From positions 1-64,000 of the forward strand of contig JNEM01013221.1 in assembly GCA_000697335.1 (NCBI GenBank): 64,000 nucleotides of DNA, given 5' to 3'. The stretch's first letter is position 1. Each line of letters begins with the position of its first letter. A model generated the notes under the pieces. That model worked only from the letters and a program-made list of their open reading frames with translations, was not told the DNA's origin and ran no database searches. This document shows, in pieces, positions 770-61,930 of this stretch. Position numbers and translations under genes: made by a program. The DNA is from Conidiobolus incongruus B7586 (taxonomy: Eukaryota).

Positions 770-1559
770 ATCCTAATTATAATTATTCTCTTTATAAAAA
801 AACCTAATAAATTAAGGTTTTTATTTAAATTCCATAAAAAACTAAAATAACCAAATACTTAAGTGAAATGTATTTAAACTAGAAATTCTAAATATTGATT
901 TTGATATATCATTTTTACCACAATATATTTTTTGTTTATAAATTGATTAGAAAAAAAGGAATTGGGAGATTTTATCATTCTTTAAAATTAATAGCAAATC
1001 ATATAACTAATAATTTTAAATCAGAATCTATTATAGAAATTATTATATAAAAAGAAAAATAACTAAAAAGAGCAAAACAAACTTGATAAATAAAATGTAT
1101 AAAAATATATTAAATATGAAATAATAATATAATATTTTAATTTCCTTAATTTTATAATTTAAAATTGATGAAAAGTCAATTAATATTTTCAAAATAAAAA
1201 TATTAAAGGTTAAGATAGTCTTGTTAAAGATTTCAATAAAGTTTACTTAACAAGATATAAGAATACCTCTGGTTCAAGGTAATTATGATCAATAAATATC
1301 ATTTAAGCAAAATATTGGTAATTATTGATTTCTGGATTTGGAAATCAAATCAAGCAAAACTTTCAAATGTCCTTAATATTATGTAGAGATAGATCAAGGC
1401 ATCAATAATGTTATAAATATACTCCTTCACTCTCTAACAGTCAATTGCGCTAGTTTTCGAGGATTAGTACTGGAGCATACCCCTTGGAGTCTCTGGACTC
1501 CATGCAGGACTTGGACAGGGGTGATCAAATTTGACCAACTTTGGTCAGATTTAATTGTA
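770..1559 (+). mobile_element. Decayed Fanzor2/IS607-TnpB-like element, copy 1 (left boundary uncertain, may extend to the window start)
   Basis: Broken translations: IGRFYH (961), RFQ*SLLNKI*EYLWFKVIMINKYHLSK (1228), KTFKCP*YYVEIDQGINNVINILLHSLT (1356). These match the TnpB/Fanzor Zn-finger and RuvC-III end (KTFKCPxC...DRDxNxAxNIL). The 3' ~200 nt align with 31.1-31.3 kb and 52.3-52.5 kb. Confidence 0.85.
1441..1559 (+). ncRNA. Putative omegaRNA scaffold / element right end, copy 1
   Basis: Stem-loops at 1449-1468, 1472-1483 (GGAG-CATA-CCCC, one mismatch) and 1486-1501 (GGAGTC-TCTG-GACTCC, perfect). Near-palindrome at 1527-1552. Lies directly 3' of the nuclease C-terminus and is conserved in three copies. 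Confidence 0.6.
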
Positions 1560-27990: not shown

Positions 27991-30529
27991 TCATTAATGA
28001 AATTTAGAATTATACTAATTTTTAATTATCAATTCATGCACATTCATTCAAATTAAAATATAACTAAAATTTTTTAATTTTGAATGTTTATATAATATAT
28101 ATAATATTACATTGGTAACTCTATAAAGTTCTTTAATAATAATCAGACAGAAAAAAAAATTAGAAATATATATTAATAAATATCTTTTTTTATTATTTCC
28201 ACACTTGGTAATTTAAGCTAAATAAAAGAGTAAAGTTAGAGTTTTAATTTAATAGGAGATTTACCTTGACTTAATACTTTATTGATAAAGAATAATGAAA
28301 AATATTAATGTGGCATAATTATTACTAGTGATTATTTTGAAAATTTATAATAATTACATCAATAGTATTTTAAAATTTGATTATTCCTAGAATATCTAAT
28401 GATTTCTAATGCACCAATCAATCTTTAATGAAAACTTAAATAGGTAATCATATCAAAATATTTTGGGATTGTTCTATAATATAATTTGGTTTCAACGATA
28501 TAATACTAAATATTTTATTATTATCATTAATCAAATATAGCTTATTTAGATTACATTTTTACTATTCAAATATCAGGGAGTTGGAATTTATTACGAATGG
28601 TTAACTTTTACCATATCACCTAATTATTTTATATATATTCCATAAAATATTCTACTCACAATCTGATAAAATTACTCTCAAATGCTTTGATTTTCCAGCT
28701 TAAATTCTTGATATCATTAATCAGAGTTGCAAATTATTTTATAGTTTCTTTTTATATTATATTAAATCCTTCATTTATCAATTGTATATTAAGCATTTAT
28801 ATTAATATATTAAATAATTAGTATTATATTTAATTACAATATAAGCGCCTTAATACATCTAAGGATTATATTACTTAGTATAATATCTATCAATATTAAT
28901 AATAAATATATTAAAATATCAAGGGAATTGTTTTCAAATTTATTGTATATCTCTTTTTTCTATAATGAATTTTAATTAATTAATTTTTTTATAGTTAATC
29001 AGATAAATAGCACTGATTTAACTTTAATCATGTGTTTCTTTTTCCTCCTCTTAATATCTTACTATTCCCTCTCTGATTATATTAAAATATTATTATTTTT
29101 TTAATAATTAAGATTGCTTTTAATTTTATTATATTATATTGAGATCTTTTGATATATATTAAGTAATATAATTATATAAACTCTTATAGTTATATTAACT
29201 AATATATTTCAAACCTAATTAAACTTACTGATATATTAAGTTAATTATGTCATTTTTAATCCAAAACTTCATTTATACAATAATAACTTTAACTATTGAT
29301 AAATCTTATAAAAATATCAAAAATTAACTTTTTTAAGAAATAGTTTGGTGATTTATAAATCACAATATATAGTTTGTTAATATTTTTTGCTTAAAAATTA
29401 AAAGATATGTAAGATAATAAACTTATATTACTATAATTTATATATAACATACTTTATACCATTATGCCAATTATAACCCTGTTTTATAAGTTTTTTGTTG
29501 AATAACTCTAGGAACAAAGATTTAGATGGATATAAATTTATTTTAATAATAATGATAATAAATTTTATAAATAACATTGGTGAGTATTATCTTTTATGGC
29601 GTAAACTTATTCCTTGTAATAAGCTATTTTATCTTAATAAATTCCATTAAGAAATCTTCAATATCTGAATTCAGTTAAAGGAGTAAAAAATATATACACT
29701 TTAAATAAATAAAAGTTTTACTTAATATATAAAATAATTATTAATACAATGCGATAACAGGTTGTAAACCAATTAAATATTTTAAAAAAGTTTTTCAAAA
29801 AACCAAAATCAAGGCTTTAAATCTGATATTTGAAAAAAAGGTTTTTGAATAGGATAGTTTTGAATATTAAATCAAAATTATATTATATTATATCTTGCCT
29901 TTAAACCATACTAACATAAGTATATAAAATGAATAACTTTATAGCGATTGTTATTTATATATAAAAAACTTTATCACTATAGATTTAATTTAACTGATTT
30001 TTTTACAATTGAAAATAAACATATATTTTTTAATTAAATCATCAAAGAATATGATTCAAAATTTAATTCATAGATAATCCACCTATTATTTGTAATTTTT
30101 TATAGTCAAGAAATCTAAATTATATTTGAAAAAACCAAAAAATATAATATATTGGAAAATCAAGAATAAAATCTTTTTAAAATATGAAATGAAAAAGACA
30201 TTGAAAAAATATTTTAAAATTCAAATAAATTGAATAATTAATATTTTATTATATCTAAAGAGATCAGTATTTTAAATTTGAAAAACTAAGGATCAAATGA
30301 ATAAATATAGATTATTTGAAATATTAATACTTATTAATTATTAAAAAATAACTAATAACCCTGTAAAAATATATAACACGATTATTATTACACAAAAACA
30401 TTCAAATTTGAAAGAGTAATAGAAAATAAATATTGATATAAATTAAATATTAACCAATTTGAATTATAAAAATTGTTGTTTTTATTTTACTATTTTTTAA
30501 AATAAGCCAATTACTCAATGGAACTATTA

Positions 30530-31314
30530 TTGGAAAAGCTCAATTATAATTTCTATCTTCAAAAAACAATACTTAGTGAATGTTATTTCCTCTTATAACA
30601 CTATATGATATTAAAAATGATGATTAAACTCTTAAATAAATAAAATTAAAAACCTCAGTTTATGATATTAAATCTTAAGCTTTTATAAAAGATAATTTTA
30701 TGGTTTGTTTATGAAATAAAAAAATATTAAGAAAAATCATTATCTTTATAATACATGTAAAAAGCCATAGAATAAATAGTTTAAGAAGTAATATGTTATA
30801 TGAAATATCACAAGGTGAGAAAAACAACCAATAATATTAAAAAGAAAAATCAATATATAAATAAGGTACATAAGAAATTTACCAAATTCATTATTAAACA
30901 ATTTCATATTACGACACTTCTCAATTTAAGATTTAAAGATGGTAAGAAGAGCTTACAAATATATTAAAAATATAAGTATGGAAGCAATGCTAAGATAACC
31001 TCATTACAGATCTAAACAACCCCTACTCAACCAAATAAGAAAATACCATTGGTATAAAGTAATCATTTATAACAAGCATATTATAAGTAAAAATATAATA
31101 ATTATGGATATTTGCATATAGAAACTAAATAAGGAAAACCTTCCAAGTATCCTTAATATTATATAGATCAAGGCATCGATACTGCTAAAAATATACTCTT
31201 TCACTATCTAAGAGCCAATCAAGCTGGTCTTCCAAAATTGGTATTGGGGTTTACCCCCTTGGAGTCTCCAGGCTCTATGCAGGACTTGGACAAGGGTGAT
31301 CAAATTTAATTGTA
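30530..31314 (+). mobile_element. Decayed Fanzor2/IS607-TnpB-like element, copy 2 (may extend left to ~29400)
   Basis: EKLNYNFYLQKTILSECYF (30533); INKVHKKFTKF; MVRRAYKYIKNISMEAMLR*PHYRSKQPLLNQIRKYHWYKVIIYNKH (30939); IDQGIDTAKNILFHYL; conserved 3' end. Confidence 0.85.
31215..31314 (+). ncRNA. Putative omegaRNA scaffold / right end, copy 2
   Basis: GGGG-TTTA-CCCC (31246-31257); GGAGTC-TCCA-GGCTCT (31261-31276, fully paired with two G.U); then ATGCAGGACTTGGACAAGGGTGATCAAATTTAATTGTA. Confidence 0.6.
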
Positions 31315-31741
31315 AGCGTTCTACTGTTCTATTATCAACATGTAATAGTTATGAATTATTAACAATTTTTCTTATAACGAATGATTTTTTGTTCTATTTA
31401 TAGAGTCTGATTTCTAATATTAATAAAAATAATAGATAAAACTTAAAAATTTAAATAATTTGAATATAAGTAATTTAGAAATAAAAATTACTTAATTTGG
31501 ATAAACTAATATTTGAAATATGTTCTAATATTACTAAATTATCAAAGTTTTGAAGAATTTGAAGTTACACAAATTCTCCCATGATCTTGTTATTAATAAA
31601 TATTTTAATCTATACAATTCACACTAATATCTCAATTCAAAAATGTTGAAAATTAAAATGTAAATGAAATTCCAGTATAAATAAGAATCCAGTCACTCAA
31701 AATTCTCATTCAAAATATTTTTTTAATCAGTTTTAATTAAG

Positions 31742-50530: not shown

Positions 50531-51710
50531 TTTGAAATAAATTTAATTACAATTAAAATATTAAATAAAAAATTTATATTTTTTAATATTTATTTTATAA
50601 TTATTTAATTGCAGTATAAGTTTATATATGTTAAATAAAGAATATAATTTTTCAATTTTGACTTTTAAATTCAGAGTTTATTTAATTGTAAATGTTAAAT
50701 GATTTATCCCATAAATATGGTTCAAATTAATCTAATTGCATGTAATACTACTGAAAAATGAATTTACTAAATATATTATATTAATTAGTAAACTAAATTA
50801 TATCATAGTCAATATATTTATAATTATTTAAGAATTTTTCAAATTTACTAAATTAAATTGATGATTGAATAAAATTTGATTTAATCAGCTGATAAGACTG
50901 TGAATTATTAAGATTTAAAGATCAAATTCTTATAAAATCAAACATCAGCCCATTATAAAATATTTTTCAATTGAGTTAATTATAATGAAATTAATTCCTC
51001 ATATTCATTTCAGAACTTAAAATATAATTTGAAAGATTAATTGCAAAATAAGCAATTTATTATATATACTGATCTTATCGATTTTACTGTTTTCTAATGT
51101 AGAATACATCTTTGTAATCAATTAAAGAAATATATTTCTAGTTTTGCATTCAATTTTACCAATTTTTTATTTTTCAAAATTGTTAAATAATGTTATTCAC
51201 CAAATAAACATATTAATATAACTATAATTAAAAACTGAAGCTGAGTATAATGCTGTTCCCAGAATTTCCACTGGAACTGAAAACATCTATCAATATTTGA
51301 TCAAGATGTAGATAAGCTATCCCTGGCAGCACAGAAACTTGGATTTTATTTTATAAATACCAATTGTGATATGCTTGATTTTCAATTTAATTGTATTTTT
51401 ATTCTATCTAATTCAATTGCATTCCATTCAAATTTTAGTTTTGAATCATTGGTTTAATATATACATTTATTGAATACTCGCACCATTAATAATACCTATT
51501 AATTTAATTTCATCATCATTGATTTAGTACAAATATACTATATTAAGCTTAACACACTTCACTTTTTTTATTAATTTTTAAATTTATAGTCATTTTTGTT
51601 GTAAATATAAGGACTTAAAATCTAGATCAAAAAGTTAATTTGATTAATCTTAATCATTACTAACTTCCTTTGTTTATAAATATTAACAAGGTCCTACTAC
51701 TATTACAGTT

Positions 51711-52468
51711 GGTGAATTCTATCTTTGTATTCTAATGTAAATGGGAATTAAGTGTCATGACAAAGCTTGTAAATTAAATAAACTGAAAAGAGAATTTTTG
51801 TTCTTAACATACAAACTTTTACAACAGGCTGTTTTCTTTTTCGTTTGCTTATTGAATGGGGAAAACATTCAGGAAATTTATTATCTTTGTAATACTTATA
51901 GCAAAATATAAAGTAAAAAGTATTAGAAGGAAATCTGCTATAAAAGCACAATATTATAAGAAAAGCAACTGGTAAAATCAAAAAGAAGTTTAAAAATTTG
52001 ATAGATTTGGTTTATAAGAAACTTATTAAATTGATTGAACAACATCAAGTAGTTTTATTTCCTGAATTTAAGACTCAAAAAATGATAAAAAACAAATAAA
52101 TATAATGAAAGTAGAAGTATAGGAGTAATGTTAAAAGTAATCTCACTACAGATTTAGACAATACTTACTCAATAAAACAAAGGCATACCTTTGATACAAG
52201 CTAATCATTTGCAACAAATATCACACAGATAAAATATATGGTAATTGTGGATATTTACATATGTAACTTAGATAAGACTTTCAAATATCTTCAATGTCAT
52301 GTAAAAATGGATCAAGACATCAATATTGATACAAATATACTCTTTTACTATTTCACAGTTAATCAAGCTAGTCTTCCAGAATTAATGCTGGGATTTACCC
52401 CATTGGAGGTTCTGGACTGCGTGCAAGACTTAGATAAGGTTGATCAACTTTGGACAAGTTTAGTTGTA
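51711..52468 (+). mobile_element. Decayed Fanzor2/IS607-TnpB-like element, copy 3 (most legible)
   Basis: GEFYLCI (51711); RIFVLN-IQTFTTG..IEWG (51785, RuvC-I 'ALDPGVRTFMTG' relic); NLIDLVYKKLIK..VVLFPEFKTQKMI; SHYRFRQYLLNKTKAYL*YKLIICNKYHTDKIYGNCGYLH (52141); KTFKYLQCHVKMDQDINIDTNILFYY. Confidence 0.9.
52358..52468 (+). ncRNA. Putative omegaRNA scaffold / right end, copy 3 (more degraded)
   Basis: GCTAGTCTTCCAGAATTAATGCTGGGATTTACCCCATTGGAGGTTCTGGACTGCGTGCAAGACTT... aligns with copies 1 and 2; ends TTTAGTTGTA. Confidence 0.5.
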
Positions 52469-52777
52469 TATATTAGATTAACTAATGAATTTAATTAATA
52501 TAGTTATTATTAATTTGATAGAAAAATTTATACTCGAGAATTATCAATTATACAATATATTCAAAAAAATGATAAATTATATAAAGTTATTTTTATGGTC
52601 ATGAAAAATTATTCAATAAATCATAGTAAGCAATTAAATATAAAAATTGAAAATATAATTAATAAAAGACTTATTGATTATATATATATTGATTTTTACT
52701 TATTAGCTGTAGATTAAATAATTAAAATATGTAAAATAAAAATGAATAATTATATTCAATCCTATGAAATTGGGTTT

Positions 52778-58504: not shown

Positions 58505-61500
58505 CTACCATTTAAGAGATTCAATATCTTCGGCACTAGCACAGTTCTTCCTGTTTGAAGAAGTCAATGGCTGAGTCAAAGTGGATTTAACATTTTCAAA
58601 TTGAGAGATGTCGTTGGACATAGCAGCACGGAACAATTTAGATCCATATTTGGCATACATTTCAGAAACACCACCACCAGCCATCAATCTTTCTTCCATC
58701 TTACTCAATTGGAAGGGAAACTGCTCGCCATTGCATTTGATGATGCGATTAGGTACATCAATTTCAACTTCAGCACCTTCTTGAGCCAATTCGTAGAATC
58801 TTTCATCAGCAAGAGTAATGCCCAAGAGAGACATGTTGGGCTGATTACGAGAGTAAATAAAGGCAAATGACTTGGCAATTACAGCCTTGACACCGGCACC
58901 CTTGAGAGCACGAGGAGCTTCTTCACGAGAGGAACCAGAGCCAAAACCGATGCCACCGACCACAATGTCGAAACCGGCCTTGACCTTTTCAAAGAATTCG
59001 GGACGGTAGTATTGGAATGAGTGGGTACCAAGATCTTCATCGGATGTACCAGGCATAAATTGAGCTGGAATGATAGCATCGGTATCAATGTTGTCTTCAA
59101 ATCTTTGAACCTTTCCTGAAATAACTGGAATTCCAAAGGATTCACCAGAGCCTTCAGCAGCTGAACTTTGACCTTGGGAGGCACCAGTTGGAGTAGAGTC
59201 AGCGTAGAGTGGATTGGGTTCAGAAATTTGGACGGGTTGGTTCTTGTCGAGCCATTGATCAAGCATCTCGGCATAACGTTGACGATCAATACCTTCCAAG
59301 AGTTCTCTGGGGTCGCGAATCTTCATATCGAAACTACTGGCGGCGACGGTAGCAGCACTGGCCAAATTACCAATACTACCCTTACCCATTCTGTTTCTAA
59401 AGTTCCTGTTTTGGGAGCTGAGCCATACTTCACCTTCTTCGGCCTTATCAGCAGCTACAGCAATACAGTATGAGCAGCCAGGAGCACCAATTTCGAAACC
59501 GCATTGTTCATAAACGTCAAGCAAGCCCAATTTTCTCAATTTGGCAACGATGGGAACAGATCCGGGTGTGACCTTACGCTTGCCACCAACAACAGGTACC
59601 CAGCCCTTCTTGAGACCTTGTTCCAAGACAAGACCAGCAAGGATAAGATCTTCTTCAGCAGTGGTACAAGCACCAATGAAACATCCATCGAGTTCTTTGC
59701 CTTCAACTTCTTTGACGGAAACGACATTGTCAGGAGAAGGATAGATGGCAACCAAAGAATCAACCTTGGACAAATCGATGGTATAAGATTCAGCATACTC
59801 AGCATCTTCATCAGCCTTGAAATAAAGAGATGAATTCTTATGCTGAGGAACCTTACGCTTCTGAATGAAAGTTTGAGTAATTTCATCAGCTTCGAAAACA
59901 CCAGCAATACCACCAAATTCGGTGGTCATGTTGGCAATGGCAAATCTAGCATCACAACTGAGGTGCTTGAGGCCAGGACCAGTAAATTCAACAGCTCTTT
60001 CGAAGGCAACAGTGTTACGCTTCAATTCACCCATGACATACAAGATAGTATCCTTACCACCAATACCGAAAGGAGGTTCATTAATAAATCGGATGTTAAG
60101 AACTTCGGGAACTTTGAACCAAGTTTCACCCGTGACCAAAGGCATAAGAACATCAGCAGCACCCAAACCAACAGCAAATGCACCGACAGCACCGGCGGAG
60201 CAACTGTGAGAATCAGCGCCGACAATGACCATACCGGGCTGAGCTCTTTGGCGGTAGAATTCAGTGTGAAGAATAGTTTGATTAGGGCCATAGAAATCGG
60301 TCAAGTTGGCTTCTTTAGCAAACTTTTCAGAAGCAGCAATCAACTCTTTAGGTTTAGGAAGGTGATTGATCTTGGGATCCACGGTATGATCGATAGCAAG
60401 CCAGAATCTATCATTTCTATGAATTCCGGGACGGCCCATCTGTTCGTATGTCTTTTCCATACCTTTCCATGTAAGTTCGGAGGCCAAAGTCCAATCAACG
60501 CGTACACAAATCATATCACCAGGTTTGATATTACCAGGTTCTTCGAGTCCAATGGCAGCATGGCAGAGAATTTTTTCACAAATAGTCATACCTCTTCTGC
60601 CAGGAGGACGCTGGAGAAGAAGCTGCTGACCAACACGTGGACCAGGAGACCTGGATCCAGATCTTCGTTTAATTGAATTTTGAAGGGCTTTGACAATTTG
60701 ATCTCCAATCTCGGCAGTTGAAGCTTGACCGCCCAAGTCTTTCGTCCTGAGCTCAAGACCTCCTGAGCTCTTTTCATCTAAGACTTTACGTACTGCATCT
60801 TCAACCAATTTGGCTTCACTGTGAAGTCCTAAAGAGTATTTGAGGAGCATTGCAGCGCTGAGAATGGTACCAATAGGATTGGCAATACCTTGACCAGCAA
60901 TATCGGGAGCAGATCCATGGATAGGCTCATAGAGACCAAAGCAAGGATTTGCACCATCTGGCAAACCGTTGAGAGAAGCCGAGGGAAGGAGACCCAAACT
61001 TCCAGGAATTACACTTGATTCATCACTCAAGATATCACCAAACATGTTTTCAGTAAGGACGATACCATTCAACTTAGTGGGACGTTGAACCATTAACATA
61101 GAAGCAGAGTCAACCAAGTGGTGATCAAGAGGTACTTGAGGGAATTCTTTCTCAAATACTTCAGTAACAACACGACGCCATAGACGGGAAGTGGCAAGGA
61201 CATTAGCCTTATCAATGGAGTGAACAGCAAGGGGAGGGTTATGTTGAGAAGCCATCGTGCCTGCAAGGCGAGCTATTCTTTGTACTTCGGAAACCTTATA
61301 GGGCATTGTGTCATAAGCTAAATAAATAATTAGATTTTAACTAAAGTAAACTCACAATATAAATTACCTAGACCATCAGCATCTTCTTCTTGTCTCTCGC
61401 CAAAGTAAACACCCCCAACGAGTTCTCTTATGACGATGAATTCAGTACCTTGGACCACTTCAGATTTTAGAGGGCTATTATTTACAAGTGATTGACTGGG

Positions 61501-61930
61501 GAATACACAAGGTCTAATATTAGCAAATAGATCCAACTCTTTGCGAAGGCTCAACAACCCTTGTTCAGGGCGAGGTCCAAGTCCCTTAGAGGAATCGGAG
61601 GGATCTACAGGCTTGGGCCATTGAGGACCGCCAACAGCTCCCAAAAGGATAGCAGTGGCTGATTTACAAGCTTCAGCTGTAGATGGAGGGAAAGGATGAC
61701 CTTTGGATGGGATTAGATAAACCTTTAGTATTGAAGAGTTAGGATTTACCTGTCTGATCAATAGCATGACCACCAAAAGCATGTTCTTCAAATTGAAATT
61801 CCCATGTATCATTGTTTTGAGCAATTACTTCCAAAACTCTTCTAGCTTGAGCGGTGACTTCGGGACCAATCCCGTCACCTGGCAAAACAACAATCTTTGC
61901 TATTTTTTTGCTATTTGTATATGTACTCAT
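58505..61930 (-). CDS. Fusion of 3-isopropylmalate dehydrogenase (Leu2/LeuB) with aconitase-family isomerase large (LeuC-like) and small (LeuD-like) domains; exons 61930-61750, 61700-61368, 61317-58505; ~1108 aa
   Basis: [28 protein letters not shown] and [12 protein letters not shown], then without a stop or intron [51 protein letters not shown] and [10 protein letters not shown]. Confidence 0.93.

Follow-up and report, generated by a model that had tools for sequence, protein, structure and literature searches.

The window, meaning the whole 64,000-nt stretch of DNA analysed, contains three copies of a module whose sequence identifies it as the right end of an IS607-type Fanzor2 transposon, now decayed, and which likely encoded the guide-RNA (omegaRNA) scaffold of that Fanzor2 element. 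The complete reading, in which this decayed right end would have carried a scaffold working like the published ones, with a guide beginning after GCG or GCGT, and in which the copies are now inert, is regarded as probable. The guide-scaffold identity had been proposed in a preliminary description of this DNA and is supported by the same order of parts found beside intact Fanzor2 genes in related loci, together with a covarying pseudoknot that reaches to the right end of the element.

Element copies and nuclease remnants

The window is AT-rich fungal DNA with genes for a zinc-cluster factor, mevalonate decarboxylase, a DEAD helicase and others. The three homologous copies of one element all lie on the + strand and are the sole repeats in the window at E 1e-4. 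They were correctly located in the preliminary description as GC-richer stretches after a NILLxYLT-like motif; pairwise identity is 76-81% over 145-166 nt, and the G+C content of the module is 41-45%, compared with 6-34% in flanking DNA (50-nt steps). The flanks past the element end have 12-18% G+C, and identity between copies drops to 44-53% in the window flanks. A covariance model run on the window with filters off gave E < 3 only for the same three copies. The repeat search found no left end of the element in the window, and a search of the window for a TnpA remnant found none (best E 1.2). The module had no match in Rfam at gathering score, and a scaffold pattern search of viral contigs gave no match. 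The best window matches of the would-be guides carry 2-3 mismatches and lie in AT-rich DNA.

Remnants of the nuclease open reading frame (ORF) were defined by tblastn of intact homologs and by frameshift-aware alignment to homolog P0035, and all lie on the + strand. The remnant of copy 1 (955-1445, REC to RuvC-III) has 11 stops and 3 frameshifts over 161 aligned codons, that of copy 2 (30447-31219) has 11 stops and 6 frameshifts over 252, and that of copy 3 (51708-52363) has 7 stops and 6 frameshifts over 216. With homolog P0031 as the query, tblastn gave E values of 2e-20 for copy 3, 2e-14 for copy 1 and 3e-10 for copy 2. The copy 3 read-through, with X at stops, matched 20 of 1.84 billion protein representatives, 18 of which carry PF07282 (Cas12f1-like TNB domain) and one more PF01385 (OrfB domain). 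No match was obtained with the broken ORF in Pfam, PDB, plasmid tblastn, the viral scan, the atlas or a word-indexed protein search. The intact homologs score above the cut-off for PF07282 and NF040570, align to all three copies, and show a RuvC-I DPG, a shifted RuvC-II Glu and a RuvC-III Asp. In the window the RuvC-II Glu is replaced by Lys in all three copies and the RuvC-III Asp by Gly in two, and the RuvC-I Asp is lost where aligned; none of the copies has an open ORF with the catalytic residues of an active nuclease. The best solved-structure match of the intact homolog P0035 is 9B0L (E 2e-23), which we take to be ApmFz2, and the nearest named proteins are from Gigaspora rosea (RIB18763.1) and Racocetra persica. 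On these motifs, fungal homologs and the 9B0L match, the remnants are assigned to Fanzor2.

The element family is larger than the window shows, since 77-78 contig records of the source sample match copy 3 and 35 (one run) match the end of copy 2 (at least 80%), part of the matches to these two copies being short AT-rich noise. Among the matches listed (16 of 198 and 8 of 39 pieces), contigs are mostly at single-copy depth, depth not being equal to copy number. The depth peak falls on the coding end when contigs are placed on copy 3 and on the scaffold when they are placed on copy 2, and depth was therefore not used to rank the coding end against the scaffold. A 143-nt contig at depth 72 (about 4-5 times single-copy; the others listed are at 13-23) spans window positions 31175-31307 with 22 differences and covers the RuvC-III codons and the scaffold. 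Its depth matches an A at 31251, which is the loop letter of copy 1, and the copy 1 end has the pairing T; the contig may represent a subfamily that is younger and carries a compensatory pair in the knot, and its depth hints at younger copies that may not be inert. A separate 27-nt match of 93% to the last bases and flank of copy 1 was seen at 51385-51409 (E 7e-5 without the low-complexity filter). There is no scaffold upstream of it and it is probably a chance match in AT-rich DNA; if it instead marked a join at the end of copy 1, the GTAT pairing of that copy would be spurious.

Stem-loops, pseudoknot and right end

Each module runs on the + strand through three stem-loops, a linker with a long stem 4, and a pseudoknot strand that joins the right end. 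In copy 1, stem-loop 1 (1449-1468) has 9/9 pairs with 4 G.U, stem-loop 2 (1472-1483) has a 3-bp stem with one A.C mismatch and a 6-nt pseudoknot loop GCATAC, and stem-loop 3 (1486-1501) has 6/6 Watson-Crick pairs. The TGCAG linker and long stem 4 of this copy (1503-1552) are 10 nt longer than in copy 3, and the extra bases form an 11-pair hairpin (1527-1552) found in copy 1 only. The stem-loops of copy 2 occupy 31223-31276 (31223-31242, 31246-31257 with loop GTTTAC at 31249-31254, and 31261-31276); its linker and stem 4 (31277-31311) are 10 nt shorter than in copy 3, and the stem no longer folds (-1.0 kcal/mol). Copy 3 has stem-loops at 52367-52420 (52367-52386, 52390-52401 and 52405-52420), with two mismatches each in stem-loops 1 and 3 and an intact stem 2 with loop ATTTAC, and its long stem 4 (52426-52461) is the best kept of the three. 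Hairpin 1 thus keeps 9/9, 8/9 and 7/9 pairs in copies 1 to 3, with 3-4 G.U in each, and hairpin 3, fully Watson-Crick paired in copy 1, contains two G.U pairs in copy 2 and is broken at two positions in copy 3.

The three consecutive hairpins of the preliminary description are in place as stem-loops 1-3, but they are not whole in all copies, and stem 4 and the pseudoknot were missed. Its second hairpin, GGGG-N4-CCCC, is whole in copy 2 only (copy 1 has GGAG and copy 3 GGGA), and the 4-nt loop was rejected in favour of a 3-bp stem with a 6-nt loop pseudoknotted with the element end. The third, GGAGTC-N4-GACTCC, forms 6/6 pairs in copies 1 and 2, and 2/6 are broken in copy 3 (GGAGGT..GACTGC). 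The GGCTCT arm of copy 2 does keep two G.U pairs, as was noted, but this is not covariation: at 31272 and 31276 the Watson-Crick letter stands in 13 and 10 other contigs, so the copy 2 changes are one-sided transitions, and the G.U pairs are ordinary decay. Within the window, private changes fall on 15/43 paired sites compared with 19/53 other sites (stem 4 counted as unpaired), and the pair was kept in 10/15 of them, against a null of 8.4 (P 0.19).

The three-hairpin fold is the minimum-energy fold in copy 1 only. Against shuffles, the common core folded with z of -1.2, +0.5 and -1.7 in copies 1-3, which is within chance, and the window alone therefore does not prove a structure. A z of -2.96 for copy 1 was discarded as evidence of folding because it is due to the private hairpin at 1527-1552. 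RNAalifold on the three copies alone, a check that had been proposed earlier, recovers hairpin 3 only.

The element ends at TTGTAAGCG (copy 2, position 31318), 4 nt further than the TTGTA first taken as the end. The pseudoknot strand and right end are intact in copy 2 (31312-31318, GTAAGCG), with 5/5 knot pairs (one G.U) and a sixth G-C. They are decayed in copy 1 (1557-1563, GTATTTG; relatives GTA(A/G)GCG) and in copy 3 (52466-52472, GTATATA), each with 4/5 knot pairs. Fourteen other host contigs continue copy 2 with TTTAATTGTAAGC. The commoner loop letters among host contigs are GCTTAC, 14 contigs end in TTGTAAGC, and the commoner letters pair fully; the host-genome loop GCTTAC together with the TTTAATTGTAAGC ends indicates that the knot belongs to the family itself. 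Every window copy combines structural damage with a dead ORF: copy 1 has a mismatch in stem 2, a knot pair missing and the CG end gone; copy 2 retains stems 1-3, knot and end and lacks 10 nt of stem 4; copy 3 lacks a knot pair and the end and has mismatches in stems 1 and 3.

For comparison, 320 related loci were fetched, the closest of which are metagenomic. In the closest loci the ORF is followed by a first hairpin and a 3-bp stem that closes a 6-nt loop; a third hairpin is usually present before the long stem, and (G/C)TA(G/A)GCG comes last. Four close relatives fold with z of -1.6 to -4.5. The last five bases of the loop pair with the five bases before CG (CCTAC/GTAGG, CTTAC/GTAAG and CCTAG/CTAGG), the partners standing 55-107 nt apart. 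When loci with one and the same element inserted at different places are compared, similarity ends after GCGT on the right (L082/L083/L090, L085/L091 and L087/L134) and before ACGG on the left, so that the crossover is likely at CG. The TAM is predicted to end in CG, and the base on the left flank is A at 2 of 2 sites. The base after GCG is T in 8/10 loci and A in 2. CG stands at both ends in L083 and L090; among window copies the right-end CG is intact in copy 2 alone. A MerR-resolvase TnpA is carried by relatives L081, L083 and L086, and the TnpA profile NF033518 scored 109.6 bits on half the protein (cut-off 110).

Covariation was scored in 11 sequences (the three window copies and eight relatives, L087 and L134 having been added by eye), with near-duplicates L090 and L091, truncated loci and the family ending in TGTAG excluded. 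Only eight pairs, those of the stem-loop 2 stem and the knot, were counted because stem-loops 1, 3 and 4 are not alignable across families. In this set 94% of cells pair and two-sided change is seen in 5/8 pairs, so that the knot and the stem change together across relatives; the score was 0.357, compared with 0.144 for shuffled and at most 0.166 for slid sequences. With one row per lineage (seven), the knot has 33/35 pairs, equalled by 24/5040 permutations, and the stem 21/21, equalled by 48/5040. These lineage statistics ignore relatedness and use no tree, and L086 and L171 may share one event, so the permutation figures are read as support and not as probabilities.

A strict automatic test, consisting of the hairpin, the 5-bp knot and CG (the last term chosen after the loci had been viewed), was applied to the 297 of 320 loci with enough downstream DNA. 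In order of falling similarity it was passed by 7/26, 1/30, 2/65 and 8/176 loci, against 0.2, 0.1, 0.65 and 6.85 from shuffles, and by none of the three window copies. A knot search demanding 6 pairs missed most true cases. The covariance model, run among 100 of the 320 loci, returned the training loci, two near-duplicates and one weak match (L112), and nothing more.

Several features of the relatives were recorded alongside. The IS607 TnpA of L083 is split in two frames (195-620 and 683-1105) by about 60 nt of T-rich DNA, as it is at the same place in L082 and L090, and the break is likely an intron, to judge by its composition and position. In L083, 10 nt of the left end also match the stem-4 loop in inverted orientation, a candidate recombinase site. 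A second Fanzor2 family (L100, L101, L104, L113, L139 and L145) ends at or near TGTAG with no CG and has CCCTAC upstream, and the 916-residue frame of its member L096 includes a long extension at the N-terminus.

Preservation of the scaffold and the ORF

Most of the ORF has decayed further than the 3' end. Raw identity between copies is 74-78% in the scaffold, 61-72% in the upstream ORF (where the alignment is gappy), 75-81% in the last 110 nt of the ORF and 80-86% in the RuvC-III codons. Decay here runs from G/C to A/T, so G/C-rich DNA should decay faster. With no outside reference, private change at G/C-majority sites affected 54/79 sites in the ORF and 17/41 in the scaffold (P 0.006). The earlier statement that the scaffold is better preserved than the nuclease ORF accordingly stands against the upstream ORF, but not, within the window, against its last 110 nt, which changed like the scaffold: along the ORF the rate is 23/26, 22/31 and, at this end, 9/22. 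Stem-loop 1 taken alone changed at 7/11 such sites.

An outside reference was provided by intact homologs. The G/C forced by P0004 residues was kept at 78/164 positions in the ORF and 52/69 in the tail, with A/T kept at 89% and 83%; P0004 was retrieved partly through the tail, which may flatter this measure. With P0005 as the reference, forced G/C was kept at 22/44 positions in the ORF and 49/63 in the tail. From ORF rates by dinucleotide context, 35.7 of the 69 tail positions would be expected to survive, and counted by site the retention was 21/43 in the ORF and 18/23 in the tail (P 0.03). From residue 180 on, each 30-residue ORF bin kept 0.23-0.52 of its forced G/C, the last bin (7/21) included. 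ORF losses over the copies are near-binomial (9, 13, 12, 9 versus 5.5, 16.2, 16.0, 5.3), which indicates that most arose separately. The scaffold exceeds the ORF in G+C by 20-31 points in the copies, compared with 2-15 points in eight relatives.

CpG observed/expected is 0-0.3 in the copies (971-1563, 30697-31318 and 51706-52472) versus 0.69 window-wide, only 1/18 G/C sites in CpG context survives in the ORF, and TA is not raised, a pattern pointing to methylation-driven decay rather than classical RIP.

From these figures the 3' end likely stayed constrained for a while after nuclease death, the timing being the weak part of this claim. The principal alternative, which we hold to be a real possibility though not the favoured one, is that the scaffold is a fossil preserved without selection after ORF death, through an inherited gradient, weaker methylation decay at the edge, or gene conversion of the 3' end. 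Identity rises from 88-90% to 96% in the 5'-to-3' direction in the intact pair L082/L083, the decayed relatives L087/L134 share the gradient, and the private-change rate in the window was already falling along the ORF ahead of the scaffold. The near absence of CpG from the copies and the lack of an excess of pair-keeping changes are in keeping with it as well. The outside reference, on the other hand, gives a step at the tail and not a slope along the ORF bins, the scaffold-minus-ORF gap in the copies exceeds that of the relatives, and the flanks past the element end are as poor in G+C as given above.

If constraint is accepted, a parasitic phase may tentatively be proposed, in which selection maintained the scaffold of ORF-dead Fanzor2 copies and intact copies supplied them with nuclease and recombinase, and which younger, nearly identical copies at other genomic sites may continue. 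The same tentative reading has each of three lineages independently losing close to half of its ORF G/C, against about a fifth in the scaffold. Such a phase would be the Fanzor2 counterpart of the ghost and PATE elements discussed below. Should the slower decay of the scaffold reflect selection after ORF death, it would be population-level evidence of Fanzor2 guides acting in trans in a eukaryote; as things stand, the module is a fossil of a known system.

Proposed mechanism and known systems

Published Fanzor2 and IS607 TnpB work suggests how the decayed right end would have functioned. The RNA would have been transcribed through the element end, the pseudoknot would have formed its protein-bound core, and 15-20 host bases after GCG or GCGT would have served as the guide. 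By cleaving donor sites left empty, the nuclease would have caused the element to be copied back into them. On the present comparison, a serine recombinase would have moved the element with crossover at the CG dinucleotide, and after the ORFs began decaying the 3' end would have been constrained for part of the time, likely because copies with a dead ORF were still mobilised or supplied with protein from elsewhere. At present the three window copies are likely inert relics.

The RNA and nuclease steps follow reported systems. The reRNA of IS607 TnpB comprises three stem-loops together with an essential pseudoknot, which is predicted for Fanzor2 as well (PMC10711439); the pseudoknot is seen in ApmFz2 and described as absent in Fanzor1 (PMC11832414). 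The element that houses ApmFz2 is of the IS607 type and includes a conserved noncoding 3' region (PMC10530073), and the MmeFz2 RNA, built of two stems and a knot, withstands truncation of its distal parts (PMC12923547). By cleaving the emptied donor site, TnpB causes elements to be retained there, and the omegaRNAs of PATEs depend on protein supplied in trans (bioRxiv 2023.03.14.532601). The ghost omegaRNAs of Fanzor1 are active in cells and were proposed as a trans repertoire, with the native-host role left open (PMC10432273).

The module resembles the reRNAs of ApmFz2 (PMC11832414) and ISXfa1 TnpB (PMC10711439) in several ways: the nuclease ORF has a scaffold with several stem-loops at its 3' end, an apical loop forms a knot with the last right-end bases, and relatives have a serine recombinase, a dinucleotide crossover and a nearly fixed base after the end. 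It differs from ApmFz2 in length (about 115 nt versus 205 nt; PMC11832414), and from both in its CG rather than GG core, its dead window ORFs and its being known from sequence alone. Like the Spu-1 ghost loci of Spizellomyces punctatus Fanzor1 (PMC10432273) and the PATEs (bioRxiv 2023.03.14.532601), it is a scaffold that outlasts its nuclease gene and for which use in trans is proposed. The Spu-1 ghosts are described as Fanzor1 loci with no ORF at all, conserved inverted repeats and no pseudoknot (PMC10432273), whereas the window copies keep Fanzor2 ORF remnants and a knot, and their scaffolds are 22-27% diverged. Compared as proteins, the Fanzor2-like products of the glomeromycetes Gigaspora rosea and Racocetra persica share an LGPTP/LGLTP tail that corresponds to the stem-loop 2 DNA. 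TldR proteins are nuclease-dead TnpB regulators with an open frame; the window copies have likewise lost catalytic residues, but carry 7-11 stops and several frameshifts.

The comparison defines a compact Fanzor2 scaffold of about 115 nt with a 5-bp pseudoknot bearing natural compensatory changes and a CG-core right end, and this right end shows the guide start for the open-frame relatives L082, L083, L086 and L171. No title or abstract opening in the literature searched describes a fungal scaffold with a CG core, or an ORF and scaffold decayed to unequal extents; figures or supplements of Fanzor papers may hold this family.

Continued transcription of the scaffolds, with an intact Fanzor2 encoded elsewhere as the protein that they guide, appears unlikely on the sequences at hand, in which no intact partner gene was seen; copy 2 rather than copy 1 would be the candidate. 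In copy 2, stem-loops 1-3, the right end and every knot pair survive; MmeFz2 can do without distal long stems (PMC12923547), the SpuFz1 ghost omegaRNAs function in trans in cells (PMC10432273), G/C is better kept in the scaffold than in the ORF, and the 143-nt contig at depth 72 suggests several near-identical copies. Copy 2 nevertheless lacks the 10 nt without which its stem 4 is unfolded, copies 1 and 3 are without the CG end and each lack a knot pair, private changes strike paired and unpaired sites alike with pair-keeping at chance, and most of the contigs among the matches listed are at single-copy depth.

We regard it as very improbable that the module is a DNA signal only, a transposase-binding right end in which the hairpins are incidental. 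The module does adjoin the element boundary, the inverted match of L083 connects the left end with the stem-4 region, and non-autonomous copies need right ends alone; yet a loop whose changes are compensated at a site 55-107 nt downstream is an RNA signature, and the relatives fold better than shuffled sequences, at the z values given. Conservation through coding of the C-terminal tail of the nuclease is scarcely tenable: copies 2 and 3 have a frame open through the stretch, and a similar peptide terminates P0004 and P0005, but in P0031 and P0034 the tail DNA is read in the two remaining frames, the P0035 frame closes ahead of it and P0015 and P0032 stop half-way through, so that it is conserved as nucleotides and not as protein. 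A search with the copy 2 tail for a longer host protein found none, which is weak evidence.

Elsewhere in the window, an isopropylmalate-dehydrogenase (LeuB-like) gene in two pieces runs in frame into an aconitase-family dehydratase on the - strand at 58505-61824. The dehydratase has large and small domains, its best models being archaeal-type homoaconitase/isopropylmalate dehydratase, and the whole is an apparent three-part fusion in a fungus.
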